A stretch of DNA of 24,000 bases from Methanothermobacter wolfeii (GTDB lineage: Archaea; Methanobacteriota; Methanobacteria; Methanobacteriales; Methanothermobacteraceae), in NCBI RefSeq assembly GCF_025397995.1, contig NZ_CP104550.1, forward strand, positions 1,299,775-1,323,774, written 5' to 3'. The position numbers and the translations under genes are program-made. The notes under the pieces are model-generated. The model was not told the DNA's origin. It ran no database searches and saw only the letters and a program-made list of their open reading frames with translations. Of the stretch, positions 2,593 to 23,204 are shown piece by piece; within the stretch, counting starts at the first letter, position 1, and each line of letters starts with the position of its first letter.

Positions 2593-4185
2593 TTATTCCT
2601 TAAGCATCTTCATCTTCTCGTCGGGTGTGAGTTCACCGACAATTTCCTCAGGGTCGCCTGTCTTGAGGATCCTGCCACCCCTCATGAGGGATGCCCTGTC
2701 GCAGACGTCCAGGACAAAGTCCATGTCATGGGATATTATAAGGAAGGTCTGGTTAAGCTCCTCCCTGGCCCTAAGAATTGAGTCCGTGACCTGGACCCTT
2801 GTTATGGGGTCCATGGTACCTGTTGGTTCATCAAGGATTATGATCCGTGGCTCCTTTATAAGTACCTGGGCCAGTGCAACCCTGTGCCTCTCTCCGCCTG
2901 AAAGTTCATCAGGGTACTTGCCGAGGATGTTCTCAGCATACTCCTCATCAAATCCAACGGCCCTGAGTACATAGAGTGCCTTCATCCTGGCGAACTCTGC
3001 AGGGAGTTCAAGGCTTATGGCCTCTGTGAGGTTGCCCAGGACGTCCCTGTGGGGGTAAAGGCTGTACTCCTGGTGGAGTATTCCAAGGTAGGGTGTTACC
3101 CTGCCACGGCCAAGGGGTCCCTTCTCTGTCATGTCGATCCATTCATCACCGAGCCTGACGCAGACCTTTCCACTGCTTGGCTCAGTTATACCTATTATTA
3201 TCCTGGAGAGGGTTGTTTTGCCTGCGCCGCTCAGGCCCACCACTCCGAAGATTTCACCCTCATATACGGTGAGGTCCACACCATCAACGGCCTTCACAAC
3301 ACCCCTGTCAATGGAGTAGTAGTGCTTCTTAACATCAACCATCCTTATTATGGGGTTTTTCTGTTCAAATTCCTTTGATTTTTCAGGAGCCGGGACCTGC
3401 TCCATGAATCTGGCAACTACGGTTTCAGGATCCCCCTCCTCCACTATTTCGCCCTTATCAATCCATATGGCGTAATCAGAAAGGTCGCTCATGACCTCGG
3501 GCCAGTGGGAGGTTATTATCATGGTTATCCCCTTATCCTTAACACCCTCAATGAGGGCGTCGTGTATGAGCTCCGCTGTCCTGGGGTCAAGGGTACCTGT
3601 TGGTTCATCTGCAAGGAAAAGCATCGGTTCCTTGGCAAGCTGCCTTGCAAGGACAACCCTCTGTTTTTCACCACCACTGAGGTCCCTGGCAATGTGGGTT
3701 ATCCTGTGGCTCATCTGGGTCATCTCAAGTAGATCCAGTGCACGGTAGAGGGCCTCCTCGTATTCGAGTTCAGGCATTGACTTTATGACGTTATCGATTA
3801 CCGTGTCATCCTCATAGAGGGCGAAGGTCCTCTGGAGCATTATGGCTATTCTTCTCCTCACAGCCGCAAATGTCTTTTTATCGCAGTTCCAGAAGTCCAC
3901 TTCCTGGAGGGCGAAGTTTGCTCCGCACTGGCAGGGCCTTCCATCAAAGGATGGTGGCTCCACCCTGAGGCATTCAGGGCACACCGCCACCCTGTAGATT
4001 ACGCGTCCGCTGTCGGGCCGGTAGTCCTTCATACCACGGAGCATGTTTATGAGCACAGACTTTCCCGCACCGCTCCTGCCGAGTATACCGAGGACCTTGC
4101 CCTCCTCGATCTCAACGCTGATATCCCTGAGAACCTCAACATCCTTAAACTTCTTTGTGACGTTTTCCAGCTTTATAAAAAACAT
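2593..4185 (-). CDS. atwA: Methyl-coenzyme M reductase system component A2 (tandem ABC ATPase)
   Basis: Two ABC cassettes are present: Walker A GRSGAGKS and GLSGAGKT, and signatures LSGGEKQR and LSGGERHR. A Cys-rich insert ([20 protein letters not shown]) is typical of A2. The ORF extends to 4212, but ATG at 4185 (MFFIKLENV...) follows a GGGTGA ribosome-binding site, so that start is preferred. Confidence 0.9.
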
Positions 4186-4297
4186 TTGCTCACCCTCTGC
4201 TACCAGAATCAATATGATCCATTAAACATGAACTGTATATTCCTTTGATGGAAATCCCTATTAAAATTTTCCTAAATTTTTAGTCGAAATTAAATTT

Positions 4298-5047
4298 TCA
4301 GAGTTTGCTGAGGCTGAAGGATAGTCTCCCTGAGAGGGCTGCCCTTGCAACCGATACGCCGTCTGCCCCGGCATCAAGCATTGCCCTTGCAGATCTCAGG
4401 TCCCTTATTGAGTTGTTGCCTATAATCCTTGCCCTCCTGACCGCCCCTGAAACCCGCGATACCAGTTCAAGGTCGGCTCTATCAACACCGGGTTTCATGG
4501 CATCAAGGTGTATGTAGCTGCAGCCCTCCTGGTCAAGGATCTCAGATATCAGGACCGTATCTGCCTCTGGAACGTTTCCCCTTATCTTCACCGACACCTC
4601 TGAGGCCGCCTTCCTTACAACCTCACGGGTGAAGTCGCCCAGGAACTCGGGTTCAAGGAGCATTGCCTGACCCGCCCCGGTGCGGGTTATCTCGGGCTGC
4701 CTGCAGTGGGCATTGATCTCAACAACATCAACCGGATCCAGTCTGGATATCTCTATGATCCCCTCAGGTTCTGTGGCCCTGAGGTTCACGGAAACCCTGA
4801 CATCAAACCTGTCCTTTATCTTTGATGCTTCTTCAGCAACCACCGCGGGTAGTTCATTGAAGTCAAAATCAAATTCTGGTCTGCCCCTCCCAATTATGAG
4901 TCTACCTGCCCTGCAGGTCTCCATGTCTGCATTGTATCCTCCGAGGGTGACCATGTCAAAGCCATAGGGGATGAGTTTAAGGCAGAACTCTGCATCAGAG
5001 ATTCCTGCCATGGGTGCCAGTACCCTCAGACAGTTCTCACGGGTCAT
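4298..5047 (-). CDS. Dus/NifR3-like TIM-barrel flavoprotein, barrel-only archaeal type (MJ0144-like); function unknown
   Basis: 249-aa ORF with LAPMAGISD at the N-terminus and [11 protein letters not shown], which matches the Dus 'IN-x-GCP' Cys motif. It lacks the C-terminal helical tRNA-binding domain of true Dus enzymes. ATGA overlap with gch3 at 5044-5047. Confidence 0.7.
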
Positions 5048-5793
5048 TCCTTAATCACATGGACAAGGTCGTAGGTGAATCCACCCCTGATCTCCTCAAG
5101 GGCCAGATCAGCAAGGTTTGCTGCCTTCTCGGCGGTTGGGGCCTTACCGATCCCTGCTTTAAGCGCAACGTTTATCTCATCATCTATCTCATTGATTATC
5201 CTCAGTAGTCCCTGGGGCTCCAGACCATTACAGGGTGACATGAAGTTATCTCCACCTATAAAGAAGAGAAGAGCCCCCTCCTTGATGAGCTTCTTCATTA
5301 AGAAGTGCTGAACCCTGTTCACAATGAAGGAAGTGTCATAGGCAGGGACGATGTCAGTCATTGTCTCGGTTATACCGTTTATATCAAGGTGGGCGATCTG
5401 AACGTATCCCTCATCCACAAGACCGTCTATGGCGAGCACCTCTTTTCTCTCCTCTGACTGAGCCCCCCCATGACTCTGCAGGGCCCTTGAAGCGTTCTTC
5501 TGGGCATCGTAGGGTGTCTCAGCCGCACCCACACCCATACTTACGGTTATGGGGTAACGGTTGGCTATTGAATTCTGTATCCTCCTGTGGTCCTCAATAT
5601 CCATACCATTTGTGACTGCCAGCATGTTGTCAAACCTTGTGAAGAAAACAAGCCCCTGATGGGCTGCAAACTGCCGCTGGAGGTCAGCGTAAAGCTCTGC
5701 CTGGAGTATCTGGAGATCCGCCTCATTTCGTGGAGCTGGTGTGACCGTCCATGGCCCGTAGTTGTCTATCTGAATTAAGGTCATCTGTATCAT
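5044..5793 (-). CDS. gch3: GTP cyclohydrolase III (ArfA type; produces FAPy for riboflavin/F420 precursors)
   Basis: 249-aa ORF. The N-terminus [22 protein letters not shown] closely matches my recollection of the M. jannaschii MJ0145 enzyme. ATGA overlap with cofD at 5790-5793. Confidence 0.9.
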
Positions 5794-8213: not shown

Positions 8214-8600
8214 TCATGATGGTGTTCTCACAGCCCTCTCAACAGGCAGGTCTGGAGGGGTCGTTATGATTATAGCTCCTTCCTTCGGCCTTATGATTAT
8301 CTCGCCCTCATCAATAACCCTTGTATGGACCGCCACGGCACTGTTTTTTATGTGCCCTGACATGTCAACCCCGTTTACGGTAACCTTACTTAAACCTGCA
8401 ACAGGTATGAGGTAATACTCTGATGGTCCTGTGTTCTCGGCTATCTCGGGTTTTCCTGAGGATCCCTGCCCTCCACCACCGAAGGTTGCGGTGACTACAA
8501 GGAAAATCAGTATTGTGAAGAGTATGTCGATGAATGGGACCATGTTAAAGCGGGGTTTCCCGTGGATTTTGCGCCTGTACCTGTCCGTGTCAAGGGGCAT
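8214..8600 (-). CDS. ExbD/TolR-family protein (single TM helix with conserved Asp)
   Basis: 128-aa ORF. The N-terminal segment PRFNMVPFIDILFTILIFLVV carries the family's membrane Asp, followed by an extracytoplasmic domain. It starts 4 nt after the ExbB-like stop. Confidence 0.8.
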   Translation of the reverse strand: MPLDTDRYRRKIHGKPRFNMVPFIDILFTILIFLVVTATFGGGGQGSSGKPEIAENTGPSEYYLIPVAGLSKVTVNGVDMSGHIKNSAVAVHTRVIDEGEIIIRPKEGAIIITTPPDLPVERAVRTPS

Positions 8601-8604
8601 CTGA

Positions 8605-9456
8605 TCACTGCCTCAGCTTGCTTTCAATTATCTCGGCGCTTCTACCGCACCTTTCAAGTATTATATTGTTTATGCTCTTCTCAAGCATGCTCGGCTTGAA
8701 TGCCACTGATAGGTTGGCATCATCATCATCCAGTTTCCTTACACTAACCACCCCATCAGACTCCATCAGGGCCTCGACGACCTCATCAACGTCTCCATCG
8801 ACCCTTATCCTCATGACGGCGTATCCCCAGTTTGTCATCTTCTTTATGAGTTCAATCTTATCGATCTCATCATCTATCCGTGATGTTATGTAGGAGTAGA
8901 GCGGCATGAGGATTATTGCAACTGCAAGTCCAAGTATTGTTGTTATGAGGGCCACGTAGATCCCCTCAGCCATTGCAGCGGGGTCAGCATTCACACCCAG
9001 GGCCCTGAAGGTGTACCAGATCCCTATCACGGTCCCGATGAGTCCCAGCATCGGGGCAACCTCTATGATGGTCCTGAGGGTTCCCAGGCCCTTTGTCATG
9101 TTGCTCATCTCAACGATGAAGACGCGTTCCATGGCATCCTCAACCTCTGACCGGTTCCTGTAACCTATCTTTAGGGCCTCGGAGATGATGCTGGAGACAG
9201 GGTTCTGGTACTGGCCGATCTCCCTGAGGGCCTCGAGGGCACCGCCCCTCTCCATTGAATCGTTGACTGTCCCTATTATCTGGGGTGTGCTTATCCGTGA
9301 AATCCTTCTGAGGTAGTTTATCTTCTCAACTGATGTTATGAAGCCGTAGATTCCCATGATGGCTATTATATATGTTATTGCACCGCCGCTCCTGAACATC
9401 TCAAGGATGGTGGCGAAGAAGTTGATGATCTGATCAGGGAACATGTTAAACATCAC
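8605..9456 (-). CDS. MotA/TolQ/ExbB-family proton-channel protein with an extra C-terminal domain of about 80 aa
   Basis: Signature sequence APMLGLIGTVIGIWYTF...AEGIYVALITTILGLAVAI is present. The start is ambiguous: GTG 9456, ATG 9453 or ATG 9444. ATG 9444 has AGGTGA 8 nt upstream. The C-terminal about 80 aa (AVMRIRVDGDVDEVVEAL...) lie outside the channel core. Confidence 0.85.
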   Translation of the reverse strand: MMFNMFPDQIINFFATILEMFRSGGAITYIIAIMGIYGFITSVEKINYLRRISRISTPQIIGTVNDSMERGGALEALREIGQYQNPVSSIISEALKIGYRNRSEVEDAMERVFIVEMSNMTKGLGTLRTIIEVAPMLGLIGTVIGIWYTFRALGVNADPAAMAEGIYVALITTILGLAVAIILMPLYSYITSRIDDEIDKIELIKKMTNWGYAVMRIRVDGDVDEVVEALMESDGVVSVRKLDDDDANLSVAFKPSMLEKSINNIILERCGRSAEIIESKLRQ

Positions 9457-10172: not shown

Positions 10173-11246
10173 TTATTTCATGGCCTTCAGCCTTACCTCC
10201 GGCTCAAGGGCCCTTGGTTCAGCTGCGACAATTGCGGCTCCCTTTGCAACCACGGTCATGGGGTCGTCGGATATCTCAACAGGGATGCCCACCTCTTCAA
10301 ATATCCTCTCCTTAATGCCTCTGAGCTGTGAGGTTCCACCCACAACCACGGTCTTATTGTAGACACCAGAGATCAGTTCAGGTGAGAGCCTTTCAAGCAC
10401 GGCGGCTATGGAGTTGACTATACCTTTAACAAGTGGTTCGGCGGCCTCAGCAACCATTTCAGAATCTATTTCAACCTTCTTGGGTTTGTTTGTTTCCATG
10501 CACTTCCCTATAACTACCGTCTTGAGATTCTCAAGGTCTTCGCTGCATTTGACCATTCCAACCTCTATCTTGGCCTTCTCTGCTTCATGTATGCCTATTT
10601 CCACGTTGAATTTTTCCTTTACAAGTTCAACTATGTTGCTGTCTATATCGTCACCGCCAATCCTTATGGTCTCGATGTCGGTGATTCCTCCAAGGGATAT
10701 TACAACAATGTCACTTGAACCCGCACCTATATCCACCACCATGGTACCTGAGGCCTCTGCTATTGGTAGACCCGCACCTATGGCGGCTGCCAGACCCTCA
10801 CTTATGACAAGAACATAATTTGCCCCTGCCTTTCTCCCTATCTCTTCCACAGCGTTCCTCTCAACCTCTGATGCATCCCCAGGTATGCCTATCACAATCC
10901 TATCTATGGATTCAGAGTCCCCTGCACCGAGCTCCATTGCATATACAAGCAGGGCCTCCGCCTGGGCCACACTCTCAATGACACCCTTCCTGAGGGGTCT
11001 TACTGCTATGATGTCTTCAGGGGTCCTTCCAAGCATCATCTTTGCCTCTTCACCCACTGCAAGGACATATGAGGGGTCCTCCTTCTTAACAGCCACGACT
11101 GAAGGAATCTTGTAAATATCAAATTTGTCCCCTGCTGGCTTGGCAACCACGGTATTGAGGGTACCGAGGTCTATGCCAAGGGTGTTGGCAATGGCCGCCC
11201 TTTTTTCATCTTTTTTTTCCTCGTTCTTCTTTCCAAATGAAAACAT
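10173..11246 (-). CDS. mreB: Actin-like rod-shape protein MreB
   Basis: Collinear with bacterial MreB by eye, using my recollection of the T. maritima protein: GIDLGTLNT, PLRKGVI, VVDIGAGSSD, IRIGGDDID, VVGGTSQLRG, AKGAAI. The ORF extends to 11285, but ATG at 11246 (MFSFGKKNEEKK...) follows GAGGAGGAG and lies 1 nt after the upstream gene's TAG. Confidence 0.9.
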   Translation of the reverse strand: MFSFGKKNEEKKDEKRAAIANTLGIDLGTLNTVVAKPAGDKFDIYKIPSVVAVKKEDPSYVLAVGEEAKMMLGRTPEDIIAVRPLRKGVIESVAQAEALLVYAMELGAGDSESIDRIVIGIPGDASEVERNAVEEIGRKAGANYVLVISEGLAAAIGAGLPIAEASGTMVVDIGAGSSDIVVISLGGITDIETIRIGGDDIDSNIVELVKEKFNVEIGIHEAEKAKIEVGMVKCSEDLENLKTVVIGKCMETNKPKKVEIDSEMVAEAAEPLVKGIVNSIAAVLERLSPELISGVYNKTVVVGGTSQLRGIKERIFEEVGIPVEISDDPMTVVAKGAAIVAAEPRALEPEVRLKAMK

Positions 11247-11247
11247 T

Positions 11248-11889
11248 CTACTCCTCCTCAACGATATCTTTAAAGTCAACTGCAAATATGTTATTTCTTG
11301 ATGCTATCTCACATATCCTCCTGACGTCATCCCTTTCATGAACCGAGATGAGAAGGGTTACAAGGACAACATCGGTGACCTTGAATAGGGGGTCTACTAT
11401 GTTCCTTATGAAGCCTGAGAGTTTCTCTGTCAGATAAACATCAGTTTCTATGAAACCCGTTGTCCTGTCTTCAAGGATGAATGAGAATCCTATGCTGTTT
11501 TTTTCAGCTTCACCTGCAAATTTCTTCATTGCATCCTCTGGTGCTACTAGAAGTACAAGGTTGGGTTCATTCTCCACATAATAGGGGGCTATCTTGATGA
11601 AGGCGCCCCCGTTATCCTTACATATAAGTGAAAGGTCCCTTATCTTGTTACTGTCACCATAGACCATTATAAAATCAAATCTTTTTCTTACAAAGGAATC
11701 CCTGATGGTAACGTGCTCTCTGAAAAGTATCTTCACAAGATCCTTTGAAGCAATCGACTCGTAGGCAACCGAGTTAACCATGTCCTCGTTACCTGCAATG
11801 ACCGCCCACAGCTTATCTGAACTCTGGGTCGTTGAAACCTTCGCGGCCTTCCTGAGGACCTTTATCTTGCTTTCTATCATCACCATCAC
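11248..11889 (-). CDS. Hypothetical soluble alpha/beta protein with an acidic C-terminal tail, translationally coupled to mreB
   Basis: 213-aa ORF with no TM segment and no motif I recognise. It ends ...DFKDIVEEE*. Its last codons (GAGGAGGAG) form the mreB ribosome-binding site. The start is ambiguous between 11880 and 11889. Confidence 0.6.
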   Translation of the reverse strand: MMVMIESKIKVLRKAAKVSTTQSSDKLWAVIAGNEDMVNSVAYESIASKDLVKILFREHVTIRDSFVRKRFDFIMVYGDSNKIRDLSLICKDNGGAFIKIAPYYVENEPNLVLLVAPEDAMKKFAGEAEKNSIGFSFILEDRTTGFIETDVYLTEKLSGFIRNIVDPLFKVTDVVLVTLLISVHERDDVRRICEIASRNNIFAVDFKDIVEEE

Positions 11890-12072: not shown

Positions 12073-12738
12073 GTGTTCGTTAAGGGTGTTGCAAAGAGGG
12101 TCAGTTTTCTGATAAGCGTGGCAACCATCCCCTTCCTTCTGGGTTATCACGCGGTGAGTATACTTATGTTCACTATTATCGCATTCATGATGCAGTTTTT
12201 CAGGGATCCTGAGAGAAGGTCGCCTCCTGAAAGAGACCTGATCGTAGCCCCGGCAGATGGCAGACGATTCTCCGGGAAGATTGACCGTATAGAGGAGGTT
12301 GGACCTGACTATCCCCTCATCGACAGGATATTTTCTGATGGAAGCGGTGGTCTCCTCATAAGCACCTTCATGTCACCCTTCGATGTCCATGTTAACAGGT
12401 CCCCCGTAACCGGGAAGGTTGTATACACCGAGCACCTTGACGGTAAGTTCAGGGTTGCCAGGTCAAGTATACTGACTGAGAACGAGAAAAACTTAATTGT
12501 AATAGAAACAGATTACGGTAACGTTGGAGTTATACAGATAGCAGGTTTCGTTGCCAGGAGAATAGTCCAGTACGTTGAGGAAGGGGATCATGTTGAGAAG
12601 GGGTGCCGTATAGGTATGATAAGGTTCGGTTCAAGGGTGGACCTTATACTGCCAGGAAACTGTGAGGTCCTTGTTGATACAGGTTCAAGGCCAAAGGCCG
12701 GGGAGACCGTTGTTGCAAGGTTCAGAGAAAACATTTAA
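12073..12738 (+). CDS. psd: Archaetidylserine (phosphatidylserine) decarboxylase proenzyme
   Basis: 221-aa ORF with a GTG start after AGGTGA. It has an N-terminal hydrophobic segment and the FGS self-cleavage (pyruvoyl-forming) site, with the Gly-Ser codons at 12628-12633. Confidence 0.88.
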   Translation: MFVKGVAKRVSFLISVATIPFLLGYHAVSILMFTIIAFMMQFFRDPERRSPPERDLIVAPADGRRFSGKIDRIEEVGPDYPLIDRIFSDGSGGLLISTFMSPFDVHVNRSPVTGKVVYTEHLDGKFRVARSSILTENEKNLIVIETDYGNVGVIQIAGFVARRIVQYVEEGDHVEKGCRIGMIRFGSRVDLILPGNCEVLVDTGSRPKAGETVVARFRENI

Positions 12739-12903: not shown

Positions 12904-13614
12904 ATGAAGGATTCATTTAACAAGGAAGAAAGAAGGATAACATCGTTTATAGGAATCCCTGATATTATATCCATGCTCAACGCTTCTTCAGGATACTTAT
13001 CAATTATTTTATCCATTAACGGGTTCTTTGATGCTGCATGCATACTTATGCTCACAGCCATGATCTTTGATTCCATGGATGGCTGGTTTGCCAGGAGGAG
13101 TGGAAGGACCGGGACCGGATTCGGAAAGAACATCGACTCCCTTTCAGATATAGTTTCATTTGGTGTTGCCCCGGCCATCTTTATCTATTCAGCAGGCGCC
13201 AGCTTTAAATATATTAATATATCAGTAGGTCTCTTAATAGTATTATGTGGTATACTGAGACTTTCAAGGTTCAATGTCCTCACAGGGGGTGTGAAAAACT
13301 TCACGGGTCTGCCAATACCCGTAGCGGCACTGATGCTATCATCATTCTATCTCACAGGATTCTACAGTGAAACTGCTGCAGCCATTCTGATGCTGGCTGT
13401 TTCTATCCTCATGGTGAGCAGTGTTGAATATCCCAAGGTTAGTGGGAAAAGTGCCTTGATGGTGCTTTTGCTGATAATGGTGGCAATCATAACGGGTCTT
13501 ATGACAGGCGCCATTTCAGGCCCCGTTTCGACCATGCTTTTCATTGCCACGATTATCTACATTATAATACCCATAACATCAATGAGACGTGATCTAAATG
13601 CTGGACAAAATTAA
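12904..13614 (+). CDS. pssA: CDP-archaeol:L-serine O-archaetidyltransferase (archaetidylserine synthase; CDP-alcohol phosphotransferase family)
   Basis: 236-aa polytopic ORF. The CDP-alcohol phosphotransferase motif DGWFAR-x9-G-x3-D-x3-D is encoded at 13078-13149. Confidence 0.9.
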   Translation: MKDSFNKEERRITSFIGIPDIISMLNASSGYLSIILSINGFFDAACILMLTAMIFDSMDGWFARRSGRTGTGFGKNIDSLSDIVSFGVAPAIFIYSAGASFKYINISVGLLIVLCGILRLSRFNVLTGGVKNFTGLPIPVAALMLSSFYLTGFYSETAAAILMLAVSILMVSSVEYPKVSGKSALMVLLLIMVAIITGLMTGAISGPVSTMLFIATIIYIIIPITSMRRDLNAGQN

Positions 13615-14899
13615 AGGTGATGACCGGGATAAGAAAAATCCTCCAGATCTCCGTAAAAACATCAGAAAAGAAGGATCAGATGTTGGGGATAAGTTAAAGG
13701 GACTTGTAGGTAAATTTGGTGGTGGAGAAGACGGTTCAAAGAAAAAGAGGGAACCGCGTCCCATGCCAAGGCCCCGTTTAAAATCACGCGAAACCAGGAA
13801 ACCCGAAAAGGCGCCTTTAAAATCAGAATCAGGTGAGAAACCGAAACCTAGACTTACTCCACCCCCCAAGAGACCAGGAGGGTCATCTGGAGGTATAGGA
13901 AGACGCATCCCCGAGGAGGATCAGAAAACCATTGTGGGTGCGGTTGTTTTTGGCGTTATACTCATGATACTCGTAGGTGCCGGTTACTACTTCCTTGTGT
14001 ACCAGCCATACCAGGAGGTCCTCCAGAACGCCAAGGCAACGAAGATCGCCGAGGTGGATGCACTGTTCAAGGGGCCCCTTGCAACAGATCCACAGAAACA
14101 GGCCATCCTTGCCCAGATAGATGGTGCCACGACTCCAGAGGAAGTCCTTGCCGTGGACGTGGTTGGGCCGGCTACACAGTCCTGGAGAACCTATCAGAAC
14201 CAGCAGATAAACCTGAAGAAGGATCGTGTTAACAGGGTAATGGTGAACTACACCGACAATGGTCAGGAAAAGCGCGTTATAATGAAGGTTGATGATGCCA
14301 AGAAGTTCGTGAGCCAGGCAGATGCAACGGTTCTTGCCAATACCCAGATCCAGACCCCTGACACGGTGGCGGTGCCCATAATGATCACACGTCTTCAGGC
14401 TGCAGGAGGCCTGATAAGTGTCGGTAGCATGGTGGACGTCTACCTCAGGCAGAATAACACAAATAACACAGCACCATCATCATCGACACCAAAGATAAGC
14501 GGTGCCACCGTGCTTGCAATCCTGCGTTCAAAGGACAGTGGAACGGTGGATGCCAGGATACTGAACACCCAGCGCCTCACACTCAACTCAATAACGTCCC
14601 AGAGTGAAAATGAAAGGACATCATCAACTGACGTTGAACAGCTCCTTAGAGCAGCGGCATCAGGAGGCCTCAACGAGGCTGAAATCAATGCAATACTTCA
14701 GAATTATGGTATACGGCTTTCAGATTACGAGAGATCCTCAAACCTGGGTGAACTGGAAGCAAACTACCTCATAATCCTTGAGGTGCCCAGAGAGGACGTT
14801 CTGTTCCTCATACAGAACATGGACAGCGTAATCCTTACCGTGCCGACACAGAACGCGCCTGACTGGATGATAAGGGAGCTGCAGAGGATATACGGATAA
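13598..14899 (+). CDS. Single-pass membrane protein with a basic Pro/Lys-rich N-terminal region and a CpaB/RcpC-like (SAF/beta-clip-like) ectodomain
   Basis: 433-aa ORF whose start overlaps the pssA stop by 17 nt. The TM segment IVGAVVFGVILMILVGAGYYFLVY is encoded at about 13928-14002. The C-terminal half has CpaB-like strings (ISVGSMVDVYL..., ISGATVLAILRS, ANYLIILEVPREDVLFL). The family assignment is by eye only. Confidence 0.55.
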   Translation: MLDKIKGDDRDKKNPPDLRKNIRKEGSDVGDKLKGLVGKFGGGEDGSKKKREPRPMPRPRLKSRETRKPEKAPLKSESGEKPKPRLTPPPKRPGGSSGGIGRRIPEEDQKTIVGAVVFGVILMILVGAGYYFLVYQPYQEVLQNAKATKIAEVDALFKGPLATDPQKQAILAQIDGATTPEEVLAVDVVGPATQSWRTYQNQQINLKKDRVNRVMVNYTDNGQEKRVIMKVDDAKKFVSQADATVLANTQIQTPDTVAVPIMITRLQAAGGLISVGSMVDVYLRQNNTNNTAPSSSTPKISGATVLAILRSKDSGTVDARILNTQRLTLNSITSQSENERTSSTDVEQLLRAAASGGLNEAEINAILQNYGIRLSDYERSSNLGELEANYLIILEVPREDVLFLIQNMDSVILTVPTQNAPDWMIRELQRIYG

Positions 14900-14957
14900 A
14901 TGAACCTTTTTATTGGGGGGATAATTTAATTTATTATTGATAGGTGGGGAATGTCAT

Positions 14958-15887
14958 ATGCGAAGAAGGTTGTGTATTCTTATACTTGCTTTAATGCTGC
15001 TTTCTGCTGCGGTAGTCCCTGAGAGCGGATCAGCAGCAAAGGAAACATGGGTGAAGGAAAACCCTTCTGCAACAAGCTTCAGACTGAAGGACCTTACAGC
15101 CGTTATAACCGTTAAGATAAAAAACAACGACAAAAACGTCCAGTACTTCAAGATAGGCCATGTCTATCAGGGAAGCCTTCAGGAGAACAGCACGATAAAA
15201 TGGATAATCCAGTGGACGGATCCAGCAGCTATTAAGATGGTTAAGTCAAGGACCCCTGAACTTGGAGGTGACTATGGATGGAAGATCAAACCAGGGGAGA
15301 CAAAGACGGTATCCTTCGGTCTGCAGGCAACAGGGGAAATGGGTGAGATCCCGAGTTACATAGTAAATGTTGAGTCAGATGACAGTAACTACTGGCCGAT
15401 CCTAAATGAGCCGGGATTAATGTCATCATGGTTCATACCAAATGAGATAGAAGTCCTGAACCCATCCCTTGATCTTAAGTACTGGAAGGGAACCTTCGGC
15501 TTCACACTGATAAACATCGATGATGAGAGGGTTTCAGGTATCGTCAGGGCCCCCATTGCACCTGTAAATTCAAGGGTGATCTACAGCAGCCCCCAGGCAT
15601 TCTCCGATGACAACCTGTTTGTCAGCACACAGGTCGCTGCATGGGATGTTACCATGGATCCTGAAACATCCCAGAGGTTCATCTACACCTATGAATGGCC
15701 TGCAAAGATAACAGGGGGTATGCCTCAACAGGCAGCGGCGGTTACTACCCACCGGGAACCCTCTACGGGACCACAGGTTCATCATCAGGGTTTCCAGGTC
15801 AGAAAAACAGGGGCGCCCTACGGTCCGCTGGTCATAGGGGCCCTTGTAACAGCGGCAGCAGTGGCATACACGAGGCTAATGCGCTGA
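14958..15887 (+). CDS. Secreted beta-rich protein with an N-terminal signal peptide and a C-terminal hydrophobic, basic anchor (candidate sortase substrate)
   Basis: The ORF opens at 14937, but ATG at 14958 follows GGTGGGG and gives MRRRLCILILALMLLSAAVVPESGSA|AKE. The C-terminus is ...EPSTGPQVHHQGFQVRKTGAPYGPLVIGALVTAAAVAYTRLMR*. Confidence 0.8.
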   Translation: MRRRLCILILALMLLSAAVVPESGSAAKETWVKENPSATSFRLKDLTAVITVKIKNNDKNVQYFKIGHVYQGSLQENSTIKWIIQWTDPAAIKMVKSRTPELGGDYGWKIKPGETKTVSFGLQATGEMGEIPSYIVNVESDDSNYWPILNEPGLMSSWFIPNEIEVLNPSLDLKYWKGTFGFTLINIDDERVSGIVRAPIAPVNSRVIYSSPQAFSDDNLFVSTQVAAWDVTMDPETSQRFIYTYEWPAKITGGMPQQAAAVTTHREPSTGPQVHHQGFQVRKTGAPYGPLVIGALVTAAAVAYTRLMR

Positions 15888-15897
15888 CCCATTAACC

Positions 15898-15908
15898 TTT
15901 ATTTTTTT
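15898..15908 (+). terminator. Oligo-T tract (TTTATTTTTTT) between the candidate substrate gene and the sortase gene
   Basis: It starts 11 nt after the stop at 15885-15887 and lies immediately upstream of the sortase ribosome-binding site (AGGGGGGA). It may act as an intra-operon attenuator. Confidence 0.35.
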
Positions 15909-15922
15909 AAAGGGGGGACCTC

Positions 15923-16645
15923 TTGAGGCTTAGCACGGCTCTTGTAATCACTGGTATGTTTATAATCTCACTCTACGCCCTTATTGAGGTAAGCTTCTAC
16001 TCCTCCCAGATAACGGTCCATCAGAGGGATGTTGATTCACCGGTAGTTGAGATACCCTCCCTCAACCTTACAGAGAATATAAACAACAGATCAGTATTCT
16101 ACGGGGTCTACCATGAACCAAGATCCTACACCCCCGGGAACAGAACCGTGATACTCTTCGGTCACAGAACCCTCTATGGATCACCCTTCCTCAAACTTGA
16201 CAGGTTAAGGGCTGGGGATGAGGTTTACCTTAACTGGCCGGGTATAGGGCTTGCAGAGTACCGTGTAAACCGTTCATTCATTGTCCCTGAATCCTACCAG
16301 ATGTCAGTGGAACAGGGAGCCCGGCTTTTCCTCATCACATGCCACCCGCCGGGGTCAACAAGGGAACGGCTCATAGTTGAATGCAAACTTGTGAGGATAA
16401 CGCCCTACCAGAAGAGCCTTAAGGTGGAAAACCCCAGGAGGTACTATGCCCTCCTGATAATCACAGGTTTTCTAATCGGAGGGCTTTTTATCACCAAGAT
16501 ATACCCTGTTTCTGAGGATAAAAGGATTCTCCTTGCTGCTGTAATAGGACTTACACTATTTCTTATCCTGGGATACATCTTCCCTGTTCCACCGGAGTTC
16601 ATATCCGACAAACTCTCAGAAATCAACAGCATGATGGGGATCTGA
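15923..16645 (+). CDS. Sortase-family cysteine transpeptidase, membrane-anchored (N-terminal TM plus two C-terminal TM segments)
   Basis: 240-aa ORF with a TTG start after AGGGGGGA. It is collinear with my recollection of S. aureus SrtA: ILFGHRT (His81, codon 16163-16165), GDEVYL, YRV, LFLITCHP (Cys140, codon 16340-16342) and STRERLIV (Arg147/149). Confidence 0.88.
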   Translation: MRLSTALVITGMFIISLYALIEVSFYSSQITVHQRDVDSPVVEIPSLNLTENINNRSVFYGVYHEPRSYTPGNRTVILFGHRTLYGSPFLKLDRLRAGDEVYLNWPGIGLAEYRVNRSFIVPESYQMSVEQGARLFLITCHPPGSTRERLIVECKLVRITPYQKSLKVENPRRYYALLIITGFLIGGLFITKIYPVSEDKRILLAAVIGLTLFLILGYIFPVPPEFISDKLSEINSMMGI

Positions 16646-16743: not shown

Positions 16744-17112
16744 ATGAAGGATGCTGACAGTAAATACTTCTCCAACCTTACAGATAGAGAAAGGGCCATA
16801 TTTGAAGGCGGAATCAGCATGGGTGCTCTCTTCCATCAGTTTACCGGAACACCCGTGAATCTGAGAATCGCAGAGGACCTTGAAAGGGCCATCGCAGAAG
16901 CCATAAGCCTGCAGCCCGCCATCAGGGATGTTGAAGTCCATATAGACAGGGAACGCCTCATGGAGGCGTCAGGAGAATTTGGATACACATCACTCACAGG
17001 GGAAATGCTGGATGTCACCCTGACTGTGGAGTACGGCTCAGCAGTGATCAGGGTCCGCCTCGAGTACATTGAGGAACTCAAGTACCCCCTCATGTACGTC
17101 CATGATGAATAA
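16744..17112 (+). CDS. mptD: Archaeal dihydroneopterin aldolase (MptD family; methanopterin biosynthesis)
   Basis: 122-aa ORF with a GAAGGAG ribosome-binding site upstream. The string ERAIFEGGISMGALFHQFTGTPV matches my recollection of the MptD/DUF381 family. Confidence 0.7.
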   Translation: MKDADSKYFSNLTDRERAIFEGGISMGALFHQFTGTPVNLRIAEDLERAIAEAISLQPAIRDVEVHIDRERLMEASGEFGYTSLTGEMLDVTLTVEYGSAVIRVRLEYIEELKYPLMYVHDE

Positions 17113-21166: not shown

Positions 21167-22252
21167 TCACTGAATGCTCCTCTTAACGGTAACCGTGTGT
21201 GCCATGACCATGGCGGATATTATAATATACGTAAGGAGGGCTGATGAGTTAAAGGACCTGTTGAATATAAACAGTCCAATAAGGCTCTGGGAAAGAAAAG
21301 CCGCCAGAGAACCTATCAGGAGGGCCTCCCTTCCAAGGTACATTCTGCTTCCATTTAACCTCTGCTCCTGGTACCTCTTAAGAACCTTCAGACCCGAGAT
21401 GGTTACTATCATCACCCATGAGAGCAGGAAGATGAGGCCGAAGAATCCTGCATCAAATGCCACCGCAAATATCCCCGGGAGCATGTAGTCTATGTAATCC
21501 TTCTTAACAACAAGCACGCCATAGAATATGTGATAGGGGAGCCCGAGGTTCTGTATCATTGTAACCGGTAGCGTTATGTATCCATCGGCGCCTCCGAGGC
21601 ATGCCGATTTCCAGTAGCATGACCCCTGCACATGGCCCCAGAAGGTCGTGTTCTTGAGTACAAGGGACAGGCTTGGGATCGTGTTTTCTTCAAGCCTTGT
21701 TATCCTGAGCATGGGGCTCAGAACACTTTTATTCAGAACCTTTGATAGGAACTCCAGAAGGGCGAAGGCCCCTGCCCCTGCAAGGAAGAATGATGCAATG
21801 GACTTCGGGGTTATCTTTGTGCTTCTCCTGAAACTCCGGGACATGAGTATGTATCCGAAGGCCCATCCGGAAAGCCAGAGTATAAGGAATGATCTGTGCA
21901 TGATTCCCCCTGCAATTGCTATGATGAAGAAGAGGAGGAGTGATAGTTTCTTAATGGATGTTGACCTTATACCTGCCTCTGTCAGGAGGTTTAATGATGC
22001 CACCATGGTAACCCAGAATAACACTGCGAAGGGTCCGAAGGGGTGTGTGAACTCATGGTGTGAGAGAAGCGGAAGTAAGAGGAATGCTGCGTCGAGTGCG
22101 AAGACCAATGCAATTATAATCGTGATCAGTGTTCCAAGGAACATCACGAGGCTCAGTGGAACTGCCACCACGTTGAAGAGCAGAAGCACCCCAACATGGA
22201 TTATCACTGCAACTTTCAGTATGAACTGAAGGTTATTCTGAGCTATCAACAT
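21167..22252 (-). CDS. Polytopic integral membrane protein (about 9-10 TM) with a Cys-containing extracytoplasmic loop of about 75 aa; family uncertain
   Basis: 361-aa hydrophobic ORF with a large loop (ITRLEENT...GSCYWKSACLGGADGY...) between the TM clusters. Weak, collinear resemblance to SEDS (RodA/FtsW) motifs; see findings. Confidence 0.7.
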   Translation of the reverse strand: MLIAQNNLQFILKVAVIIHVGVLLLFNVVAVPLSLVMFLGTLITIIIALVFALDAAFLLLPLLSHHEFTHPFGPFAVLFWVTMVASLNLLTEAGIRSTSIKKLSLLLFFIIAIAGGIMHRSFLILWLSGWAFGYILMSRSFRRSTKITPKSIASFFLAGAGAFALLEFLSKVLNKSVLSPMLRITRLEENTIPSLSLVLKNTTFWGHVQGSCYWKSACLGGADGYITLPVTMIQNLGLPYHIFYGVLVVKKDYIDYMLPGIFAVAFDAGFFGLIFLLSWVMIVTISGLKVLKRYQEQRLNGSRMYLGREALLIGSLAAFLSQSLIGLFIFNRSFNSSALLTYIIISAMVMAHTVTVKRSIQ

Positions 22253-22315: not shown

Positions 22316-23176
22316 TTATGGGGAAGTCATCCCCACTATGTAGTTGTAGATACCCACAAGGAAATCGTAGATCTGCTGCAGTATATCTGCACCTCCAGCC
22401 TGCTGGCTCATACTTTCAAGTTTCTGTTTAAAGTCCGTGAGGTTTCCCTGAACCCTCTGGGATGCTGCAACCGAATCAGCAACCTGCTGGACCTGGTTAT
22501 CTGAAAGGTTGATGTTCATGTCCTGTGCAACATTAACAACGACGTTCTGTATATCAGCAGGGTCCTGAAGGTTCCTGTTCTCTGTCTGGTTTTTAACTTC
22601 CCCGAACAGCCGTGCTATCTGGTCCCCTGTTGCATTGGTATCATTTGCAAGCTGACTCTGGAGGTATATTTCCTCTATGGAAACCTTTTTAGCCTCCTCA
22701 GGGATCTCCTGACCCACAGCAATCTCATATGACCTGAGAACCCCTGCAAGGGCGGCCTCACCGGATGCAGGGACTGGTGATGTTACCACCACGTATCCAC
22801 GATCTATACCCGAGGACCTCAGGGCATTGGCGTACATTTCAGGTGTCACCACCCTTATCTTGCTTGCATCAACCGAGACCTTTATCCCCTCCGAGTAGGA
22901 GAGGTCCACCATTGCACAGGAGAGGATCTGGGATGGTGAATAGACAAGGCCCGTGATGCCCTTTGAGACCTCATTAACCTCAGATGCCCTTATAACCCTT
23001 ATGTCAGCACTGTTAATATCCCTGTCTGTCTTTGATTTGAAGTAATTCAGGACAGAGTTCCTGTAGGCAGGGTTGCTGTCTGTTGCCTCACCAAGTGTTA
23101 TTGAAAACCCGGAGGCAGCAAATACTGGTGCGGTCACCATGATGACGATGAGAAGTCCCAGAACTAGTTTTCTCAT
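22316..23176 (-). CDS. Secreted YpuA/DUF1002-like protein
   Basis: The ORF extends to 23191, but ATG at 23176 follows GGAGGTG with 6-nt spacing and gives the signal peptide MRKLVLGLLIVIMVTAPVFA|ASG. Strings such as VTPEMYANALRSSGI...VVVTSPVPASGEAALAGVLRSYE and the C-terminal IYDFLVGIYNYIVG match my recollection of B. subtilis YpuA. Confidence 0.75.
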   Translation of the reverse strand: MRKLVLGLLIVIMVTAPVFAASGFSITLGEATDSNPAYRNSVLNYFKSKTDRDINSADIRVIRASEVNEVSKGITGLVYSPSQILSCAMVDLSYSEGIKVSVDASKIRVVTPEMYANALRSSGIDRGYVVVTSPVPASGEAALAGVLRSYEIAVGQEIPEEAKKVSIEEIYLQSQLANDTNATGDQIARLFGEVKNQTENRNLQDPADIQNVVVNVAQDMNINLSDNQVQQVADSVAASQRVQGNLTDFKQKLESMSQQAGGADILQQIYDFLVGIYNYIVGMTSP

Positions 23177-23204
23177 AGATACCACCTCCATATTATTATG
23201 GTTC

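Follow-up and report, generated by a model that had tools for sequence, protein, structure and literature searches.

We analyzed a 24,000-nucleotide (nt) stretch of the genome of the pseudomurein-walled archaeon Methanothermobacter wolfeii, referred to below as the window, in which a sortase gene directly follows the open reading frame (ORF) 14958–15887 for a 309-amino-acid (aa) protein, here given the working name SUB. The two genes lie in a same-strand block that runs from two genes of lipid headgroup metabolism, pssD and pssA, through a gene for a DUF515 membrane protein to SUB, the sortase and a dihydroneopterin aldolase (DHNA) gene (Table 1). SUB is identical to M. wolfeii WP_074359319.1 and, by gene order, corresponds to MTH_1029 of M. 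thermautotrophicus (record note AAB85525). On balance, we consider it rather probable that the two proteins are a sortase and its neighboring substrate and that SUB ends in a previously undescribed version of an LPXTG-type signal. SUB had 170 homologues at E ≤ 1e-3, the named sources of which were all Methanobacteriaceae or merely "Euryarchaeota archaeon." Both SUB and the sortase had more than 160 homologues at this threshold, and the best 120 of each all had E ≤ 1e-65; judged from these similarities, the conservation of the two proteins is far beyond chance.

A sortase had been predicted here from collinear motifs in the sequence, and the call was borne out. The 240-aa protein covered the Pfam sortase profile PF04203 from end to end (positions 1–125 of 125; E = 7e-19, 68.3 bits against a cutoff of 26.6), and the predicted catalytic triad, consisting of His81 in FGHRT, Cys140 in LITCHP and Arg149 nine residues after the cysteine, was invariant in alignments of 14 and of 51 orthologues. 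In the AlphaFold2 (AF2) model, with a mean predicted local distance difference test score (pLDDT) of 87.6, the first transmembrane helix (TM1, residues 3–27) is followed by the barrel (29–169), TM2 (174–193), TM3 (197–219) and a conserved terminal helix (224–238). Foldseek matched the model to SrtA, SrtC, SrtD, SrtE and SrtF, all with probability 1.0, and found 103 matches in the Protein Data Bank (PDB) at E ≤ 1e-3, with sequence identities of at most 28%. Profile, alignments and model together indicate that the gene encodes a genuine sortase with the eight-stranded barrel fold. With the M. wolfeii sortase P0121 it shares 99% identity, and a sortase has been detected in M. thermautotrophicus proteomes.

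TM1 runs straight into the barrel strand at residues 29–33 in the model, and TM helices on either side of the barrel, joined to it by linkers of 1–4 residues, are predicted to tether it to the membrane. The two extra C-terminal TM helices, which the original prediction had singled out as a difference from SrtA, thus appear in the AF2 model too, but such an extension is not unique, as class C sortases carry one C-terminal TM helix.

Structure did not assign the enzyme to a class: classes A, C, D, E and F matched about equally, and the highest identities among the top Foldseek matches were those of the A. oris SrtC-1 (25–28%) and the Thermobifida fusca SrtE (24–26%). A sequence search of solved structures ranked class C first (8t28, E = 1.8e-9), ahead of class D (approximately 5e-8) and SrtE1 (5e-4). 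The orthologues are labeled class E by CDD model cd05830 and in NCBI naming, yet the NCBIfam class models all stayed far below their cutoffs, with 27–37 bits against 140–160: 36.5 bits for class E (NF033747, cutoff 160), 33.1 for class C (NF033745, cutoff 160), 27.3 for class GN (TIGR03784, cutoff 158) and 26.7 for the SrtD model (cutoff 140). The class E label is thus not supported by the class-specific models. With the class E enzymes, represented by SrtE1 of Streptomyces coelicolor and SrtE of T. fusca, the window sortase shares the fold, the His-Cys-Arg triad and the character of a membrane-anchored, housekeeping-type enzyme. It differs in matching class C and D structures better than SrtE1 by sequence, in adding two C-terminal TM helices and the conserved terminal helix, in its pseudomurein archaeal host and in its candidate substrate. 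Class E substrates carry LAXTG, the alanine of which is read by a conserved tyrosine in the β3/β4 loop, whereas the SUB motif is not LAXTG. The new specificity class that had been suggested on the basis of the motif is a putative one.

In the AF2 model of SUB (pLDDT 84.5), a signal-peptide helix at residues 2–18 is followed by two β-sandwiches (approximately 40–125 and 157–247), a disordered segment (254–285) and a TM helix (289–308), and the protein ends in ...HREPSTGPQVHHQGFQVRKTGAPYGPLVIGALVTAAAVAYTRLMR before the stop codon. Foldseek returned zero PDB matches for the model at E ≤ 1e-3, and no pilin-like fold was seen. SUB has no Pfam family; weak Fn3-like matches occurred in just 5 of 55 members, and a DUF2213 match in one of the 55 (E = 0.012) was taken as noise. 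We considered it very unlikely that SUB is polymerized into a pilus or fiber in the style of class C sortases, with a SUB lysine as the nucleophile and the CpaB-like DUF515 protein as an assembly factor. Such a role would suit the three near-invariant lysines of SUB (K55, K65 and K116) with its two β-sandwich domains, the class C enzymes heading the list of solved structures, the C-terminal TM helices of the sortase and the RcpC/CpaB "pilus assembly" domain encoded next door. It is opposed by the lack of a pilin-like fold and the low class C score, and reading by eye revealed neither a YPK-type pilin motif in SUB nor, in sortase residues 25–60 between TM1 and the barrel, a DP[FWY] lid; no formal search was made for either of them. 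The DUF515 protein also falls short as a Flp-pilus CpaB, since the equivalog TIGR03177 gave 20.7 bits against a cutoff of 71 and only the RcpC β-clip passed, marginally.

We aligned 114 distinct SUB C termini on a threonine-glycine pair and counted residues relative to the threonine (position 0). Glycine occupied position +1 in all 114 tails, threonine position 0 in 109 and proline position +3 in 113, while position +4 was aromatic in 112 (Y in 95, F in 12 and W in 5) and position +5 was G in 92. On the upstream side, position –5 was V (87 tails) or I (11), position –4 P (96) or S (15) and position –3 T (80) or S (18). The intervening positions –2 and –1 were variable, often K/R and then E/T/Q, and position +2 held V/L/A/I. 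The family consensus is thus the 11-residue [VI]-P-[TS]-x-x-T-G-x-P-[YFW]-G (consensus peptide SVPTKETGVPYG). The TG stands four residues from the TM helix. In all 114 tails, 23–28 residues follow it, comprising the helix and then a terminus of the type Y-[AST]-[RK]-x(1-2)-[RK]. The predicted architecture of motif, helix and basic tail was thus present in the window protein and throughout the family, with a conserved juxtamembrane motif upstream of the helix; a sortase barrel held at both ends would fit a substrate motif so close to the membrane. The linker before the motif is rich in Ser/Thr/Asn/Gly and varies in length, sequence and even reading frame.

As had been noted from the sequence, the tail contains no LPXTG. 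Surveys for further signals and for exosortase genes covered the ORFs of the window; none of these had an LPXTG-like pentapeptide in a C-terminal context or contained LAxTG, and SUB alone among the real genes ended in a motif, a TM helix and a basic tail. LAxTG never occurred in the SUB family tails either, which carry [VI]P[TS]xxTG instead. The LPXTG model TIGR01167 did not match full-length SUB at E ≤ 0.1 or the tail alone at E ≤ 10, and no NCBIfam signal model (LPXTG anchor, LAETG, NPXTG, PGF-CTERM and other CTERM models) matched the tail of SUB, or that of the protein P0260 introduced below, at E ≤ 10. The signal shares with LPXTG signals the tripartite layout, the spacing between T-G and helix and the preceding stalk of low complexity, but it effectively reads [VI]-P-x3-T-G and lacks L-P-x-T-G. 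Two pentapeptides had been proposed as the motif, EPSTG (15756–15770) and VRKTG (15798–15812), and both lie where they had been placed. The T-G of VRKTG aligns with the near-invariant T-G of the family, but the real motif is longer, at 11 residues, and its V-P half is lost in this allele. EPSTG, having no counterpart in any other species and arising from a linker that is out of the ancestral frame, was rejected as a shifted-frame product.

One sortase beside one main substrate with a private, rare signal is also the arrangement of the dedicated pairs of class GN ("marine"), SrtB-IsdC and SrtD. The motifs of these dedicated sortases are, for SrtB-IsdC, NPQTN and, for SrtD, LPNTA. The SUB signal differs in that its proline stands four residues before the threonine and not two, and in the conservation of its primed side, x-P-aromatic-G, which equals that of the unprimed side.

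To characterize the distribution of the signal, we searched 1.84 billion representative proteins with a profile of the last 34 residues of SUB. Just 22 proteins were found at E ≤ 1e-3, with the limited sensitivity of so short a profile, and most of those inspected were members of the SUB family or fragments of them. The same type of tail is carried by the 351-aa P0260 of Methanobacterium, whose gene lies at an unlinked site and whose passenger part is unrelated to SUB. Its close relatives end in [IV]-P-M-Q-T-T-G-x-P-x-G (motif peptide TIPMQTTGAPIG), a helix and a basic tail, and hhalign aligned P0260 with the SUB profile over the last 35 residues only, with a probability of 94%. More distant homologues of the P0260 passenger have another kind of tail, which lacks the TG and contains a run of prolines. 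Two unrelated passengers thus share one signal, and one passenger family bears two kinds of tail, the classic signature of a sorting signal that is matched to a local sorting enzyme. The tails of the distant homologues contain a literal V-P-x-x-x-P, but the VPXXXP-CTERM model TIGR04143 gave them 9.7 bits against a cutoff of 30 and the assignment was rejected. Likewise dismissed as spurious was the tail-search match P0257, a bacterial repeat protein with an internal GAPWGLF.

Among the sequences with related tails, P0248 (118 aa, from a JGI metagenome) consists of nothing but a signal peptide, the sequence EPTLSSPSDI repeated three times, a stretch rich in Asn and Thr and this same signal, SVPVQNTGVPYGLF... 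Locus L060 and protein P0242 retain just the end of SUB plus the signal. P0278, a 460-aa homologue of the P0260 passenger, ends in ...PPPKVPGITGWGILAAVVTLGGLMLVARRR; its V-P-x-x-T-G is between LPXTG and [VI]-P-x3-T-G.

Variation within M. wolfeii bears on selection for the tail. Relative to the ancestral allele, the window allele lacks one nucleotide between 15719 and 15720 and has gained one in a poly-A tract; further polymorphism affects 15748–15750 as well as the 15719/15720 site, and the alleles (Table 1) were compared at loci L070, L073, L075 and L077. An ORF in the overlapping frame (15695–15895) encodes ...ASTGSGGYYPPGTLYGTTGSSSGFPGQK, the linker of the orthologues P0002–P0005. As reconstructed from these alignments, a +1 slip in the A-tract has been offset on two independent occasions, each time by a different –1 deletion upstream. 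Although 19–29 linker codons are scrambled in both cases, the TG, the helix and the basic tail are restored, which shows that the linker sequence is nearly free and that the C-terminal signal is under selection. In the window allele, the motif region reads FQVRK-TG in place of the ancestral FPGQK-TG, so that Pro(–4) and with it the upstream V-P half are lost. The A4/A5/A6 variation could reflect slipped-strand phase variation that switches SUB anchoring on and off, or it could be residual assembly error.

We surveyed orthologous loci using one genome per species, which gave 67 sortase loci, 66 of them with usable upstream DNA. In 63 of these 66 Methanobacteriaceae loci, SUB or a remnant with the same tail was found immediately upstream of the sortase, 61 by a tblastn match to SUB and two (L019 and L060) by an upstream ORF with the same tail. 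The gap between the two genes had a median of 46 nt. SUB was missing from the remaining three loci: L013 and L046 have an AT-rich spacer only, and in L027, a metagenome-assembled genome (MAG) of Methanobacteriaceae, a 526-aa insertion sequence (IS) transposase gene (4096–5676, minus strand) lies between the DUF515 gene and an intact sortase. The gene order, with the MreB-like and coiled-coil genes followed by pssD-pssA-DUF515-SUB-sortase-DHNA, extends from Methanothermobacter and Methanobacterium to a Methanobrevibacter MAG (L014). The conserved adjacency and the conserved juxtamembrane motif beside a hypervariable linker make SUB a credible candidate for a dedicated substrate.

If so, once exported by the Sec pathway, SUB would stay membrane-bound through its C-terminal helix and basic tail, with the juxtamembrane motif (FQVRK-TG-APYG in the window) offered to a sortase barrel that TM helices would fix to the membrane at both ends. 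By analogy with known sortases, Cys140 would then attack the Thr284–Gly285 bond, releasing the TM tail and leaving a thioacyl enzyme. An amine of the envelope would resolve this intermediate, and the β-sandwich domains would end up covalently attached to the envelope on a Ser/Thr/Asn-rich stalk. The cleavage itself, its site and the resolution by an amine are proposed on the strength of that analogy.

Several observations weigh against this reading, and many of them would equally suit a permanent tail anchor that undergoes no processing, with TG-xPYG as a juxtamembrane structural or docking element (for example, for DUF515 or the sortase TM helices) and with the substrates of the sortase encoded elsewhere. 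Cleavage and attachment of SUB are proposed from sequence, models and analogy. SUB is absent or truncated in four loci with an intact sortase (L013, L046, L027 and L060), so the sortase is not there for SUB alone, and the adjacency of the DHNA gene is equally constant, giving synteny in Methanobacteriaceae limited weight by itself. Pro(–4) is lost in the window and P0001 alleles and replaced by Ser in a subclade, which means that such proteins are poor substrates or that the motif does not need its upstream half; the loss in the window allele weakens the claim that this half is essential. The compensated frameshifts prove selection for the whole tail only, and that selection might act on the TM anchor alone. 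Canonical LPxTG proteins occur in some Methanobrevibacter species with the same sortase orthogroup. The genomes also contain a second sortase paralogue, the shorter of the two in Methanothermus fervidus being encoded about 5 kb from SUB. We nevertheless give the permanent anchor a low probability. An invariant glycine, a near-invariant threonine and Pro-aromatic-Gly outside the helix form the pattern of a recognition site and not that of a generic anchor, and the same pattern is found on the unrelated passenger family, the distant homologues of which bear a different tail. Moreover, M. thermautotrophicus has been tabulated with two sortases and zero LPxTG proteins, and a non-LPXTG substrate is therefore expected there.

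Outside Methanobacteriaceae, the adjacency is not conserved in M. fervidus, which keeps SUB, DUF515 and the sortase, though unlinked. In this genome (CP002278.1), a 192-aa PF04203 sortase gene at approximately 723 kb (L078 10912–10963) starts about 5 kb downstream of the SUB orthologue, and the gene orthologous to the window sortase lies among glycosyltransferase genes at a distance of about 290 kb (L068). The signal might serve another enzyme, either the shorter second sortase or an exosortase/archaeosortase-like protease that reads "P-Y-G + helix" in the manner of PGF-CTERM. Besides the M. fervidus gene, two sortases have been reported per Methanothermobacter genome, and the layout of the tail resembles that of PGF-CTERM, with a Ser/Thr-rich linker, P-aromatic-G at the start of the helix and a basic end (partly after PMC6098224). 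We regard this as quite unlikely. The PGF-CTERM and other exosortase-type models left the tail unmatched even at E ≤ 10, no exosortase-family gene was found among the window ORFs scanned, the 240-aa sortase is the strict neighbor in 63 of 66 loci, and T-G is the universal scissile context of sortases.

Table 1. Coordinates of the window genes and SUB features, with the M. wolfeii SUB alleles
Feature	Position	Strand	Basis and remarks
Divergent MreB-like gene	10173–11285	–	PF06723, E = 3.5e-104; kept in related loci
Coiled-coil protein gene	11248–11889	–	With the MreB-like gene, other arm of the published "cluster C"; kept in related loci
pssD-like phosphatidyl/archaetidylserine decarboxylase	12073–12738	+	PF02666, E = 1e-46; opens the conserved same-strand block; upstream in 48 loci
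pssA-like CDP-alcohol phosphatidyltransferase	12904–13614	+	PF01066; positional counterpart of archaetidylserine synthase MTH_1027
DUF515/RcpC(CpaB)-like bitopic membrane protein	13598–14899	+	PF04415, E = 5e-27; PF16976, 30.1 bits against a cutoff of 28.8
SUB, candidate sortase substrate, 309 aa	14958–15887	+	ORF, orthologues, AF2 model
Predicted Sec signal peptide, MRRRLCILILALMLLSAAVVPESGSAA/K	14958–15038	+	n-region RRR, hydrophobic core, small residues before K28, AF2 helix; putative cleavage site
Linker out of ancestral frame, includes EPSTG	15720–15807	+	DNA alignments with L070, L073, L075, L077 and L001; protein alleles P0302, P0001, P0304 and P0305
Putative sorting motif region, residues 279–289, FQVRK-T284-G285-APYG	15792–15824	+	Tail counts; T284, G285 and P287 invariant or nearly so
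Length-polymorphic poly-A tract	15803–15807	+	A4 ancestral, A5 in the window, A6 in the signal-losing allele
Hydrophobic helix P290–Y304 and basic tail TRLMR	15825–15884	+	Sequence, AF2 model
Sortase, 240 aa, TTG start	15923–16645	+	Pfam PF04203, AF2 model; corresponds to OG0001178
Predicted sortase triad codons	His81 16163–16165; Cys140 16340–16342; Arg149 16367–16369	+	Orthologue alignments
Archaeal dihydroneopterin aldolase (DHNA/MptD-type)	16744–17112	+	PF04038, E = 2e-43; downstream in 67/67 loci
Ancestral allele P0304			4 contigs; GGT-AAT site GGTAATGCC, C-run CCC, A4; reads ...GFPGQKTGAPYG
Allele P0001			38 contigs; GGT-AAT site GGTAATGCC, C-run CC, A5; tail restored
Window allele P0302			58 contigs; A lost after 15719, CCC, A5; tail restored; motif peptide GFQVRKTGAPYG
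Allele P0305			3–4 contigs from at least 2 independent samples; A lost, CCC, A6; out-of-frame tail without the helix

The DUF515 protein has a basic, Pro-rich N terminus, a single TM helix and an extracellular part with a β-clip domain, and no relative was found for it among solved structures. Its start codon lies upstream of the pssA stop, the two genes overlapping by 17 nt in the window (13598–13614), and the junction ranges from –17 to +13 nt in all 56 loci compared; overlap or abutment of this constancy indicates co-transcription and suggests that the translation of a lipid-headgroup enzyme is coupled to that of an envelope protein. The DHNA gene is probably unrelated to the sortase-SUB pair, and 2-oxoacid:ferredoxin oxidoreductase genes come further along the block. 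Read by eye, an oligo-T run (T7 in the window, T6 in L073) follows the SUB stop codon at 15888–15922, and an AT-rich, TATA-like stretch and a GGTG ribosome-binding site precede SUB at 14900–14957; these features agree with a separate SUB promoter and a leaky terminator ahead of the sortase gene. On the other side, the MreB-like and coiled-coil genes diverge from the gene of a bitopic membrane protein whose basic, Pro-rich N terminus is cytoplasmic (13598–14899). That MreB-like, coiled-coil, DUF515 and sortase proteins make up an envelope-growth ("elongasome-like") module of rod-shaped pseudomurein archaea is pure speculation. Elsewhere in the window, a MotA/TolQ/ExbB-like and ExbD-like gene pair, here in an archaeon, lies at 8214–9456 (minus strand), and a 361-aa ORF (21167–22252, minus strand) that matched nothing in Pfam and encodes a hydrophobic stretch at its C terminus adjoins a DUF1002 gene (22316–23191, minus strand).

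The locus has been described as "cluster C," comprising the MreB-like gene, the coiled-coil gene, an RcpC/CpaB-like gene (OG0001177) and a "Sortase E" gene (OG0001178) (Lupo et al. 2025, PMC11915815). By correspondence, the DUF515 gene is OG0001177. In Methanopyrus sp. KOL6, three genes (WP_088335247 to WP_088335249) separate the sortase gene from that for DUF515. Both orthogroups were specific to the five pseudomurein archaea, Methanopyrus included, in a pangenome screen of 10 genomes (PMC11915815). Lupo et al. describe this sortase/CpaB-like pair only as "pilus assembly and/or surface proteins" that probably have nothing to do with the wall (PMC11915815). The accessible text and tables contain no mention of the intervening 309-aa gene, of its signal or of a link to pssD/pssA. 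Our literature search on MTH1028–1030, on archaeal sortases and on sortases in combination with pseudomurein returned nothing on SUB or its motif.

For the acceptor of a cleaved SUB, we tentatively favor a precursor peptide of pseudomurein over a lipid, though with low confidence even so. The stem peptide of pseudomurein offers free Lys amines. The wall was weighted above the lipid because the taxonomic restriction of the orthogroups fits it and because pssA and pssD are probably housekeeping lipid genes, MTH_1027 being a characterized archaetidylserine synthase (PMC7157517).

With a lipid as the acceptor, archaetidylethanolamine (or archaetidylserine) made through the upstream pssD and pssA genes would provide the amine onto which the sortase transfers Thr284, and SUB would gain a C-terminal lipid anchor holding it to the membrane below the pseudomurein wall, in convergence with ArtA/PssA/PssD; we hold this to be unlikely, though a serious alternative. 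The order pssD-pssA-DUF515-SUB-sortase is conserved, with the pssA/DUF515 junction kept throughout, and the position of the TG near the helix and a barrel tethered at both ends should place the active site at the membrane surface. Cold shock in M. thermautotrophicus is listed as raising the abundance of both sortase and PTDSS. Archaeosortase A offers a parallel: artA adjoins pssA and pssD in Methanosarcina, ArtA-dependent cleavage and lipidation require PssA and PssD in Haloferax, and aminolysis of a thioacyl enzyme by an ethanolamine lipid, "similar to sortase A," has been proposed for ArtA (PMC7157517). Like SUB and its sortase, the archaeosortase A/PGF-CTERM systems of Haloferax and Methanosarcina combine a tripartite signal after a Ser/Thr-rich linker with a proposed Cys thioacyl intermediate and a pssA/pssD linkage (PMC7157517). 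ArtA is, however, a polytopic exosortase-family enzyme that is not homologous to the sortase barrel, the motifs differ, and lipidation has been demonstrated for ArtA but is hypothesized for the window sortase. Synteny is generally rigid in Methanobacteriaceae, and the M. fervidus sortase is not near pssA/pssD genes. Ethanolamine lipids are, moreover, widespread in archaea, whereas the sortase orthogroup was found, among the lineages sampled, only in those with pseudomurein. A lipidating sortase operon together with the MreB-like and coiled-coil genes could be part of an envelope-growth module. We know of no natural sortase that uses a lipid headgroup.

SUB and its motif provide the first concrete candidate substrate and recognition sequence for the sortases of pseudomurein-walled archaea. 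Sortase genes have been noted in pseudomurein methanogens since the first genomes, with their substrates left undefined, and the 11-residue motif makes the question testable. A thermostable sortase with a non-LPXTG recognition sequence would be useful for protein ligation, and the Methanobrevibacter orthologues are possible targets for vaccines or inhibitors in methane mitigation. For the organisms themselves, the answer would reveal either how proteins are attached to pseudomurein or a true sortase that performs archaeosortase-like lipid anchoring, and either outcome would inform the evolution of wall anchoring across two domains of life.

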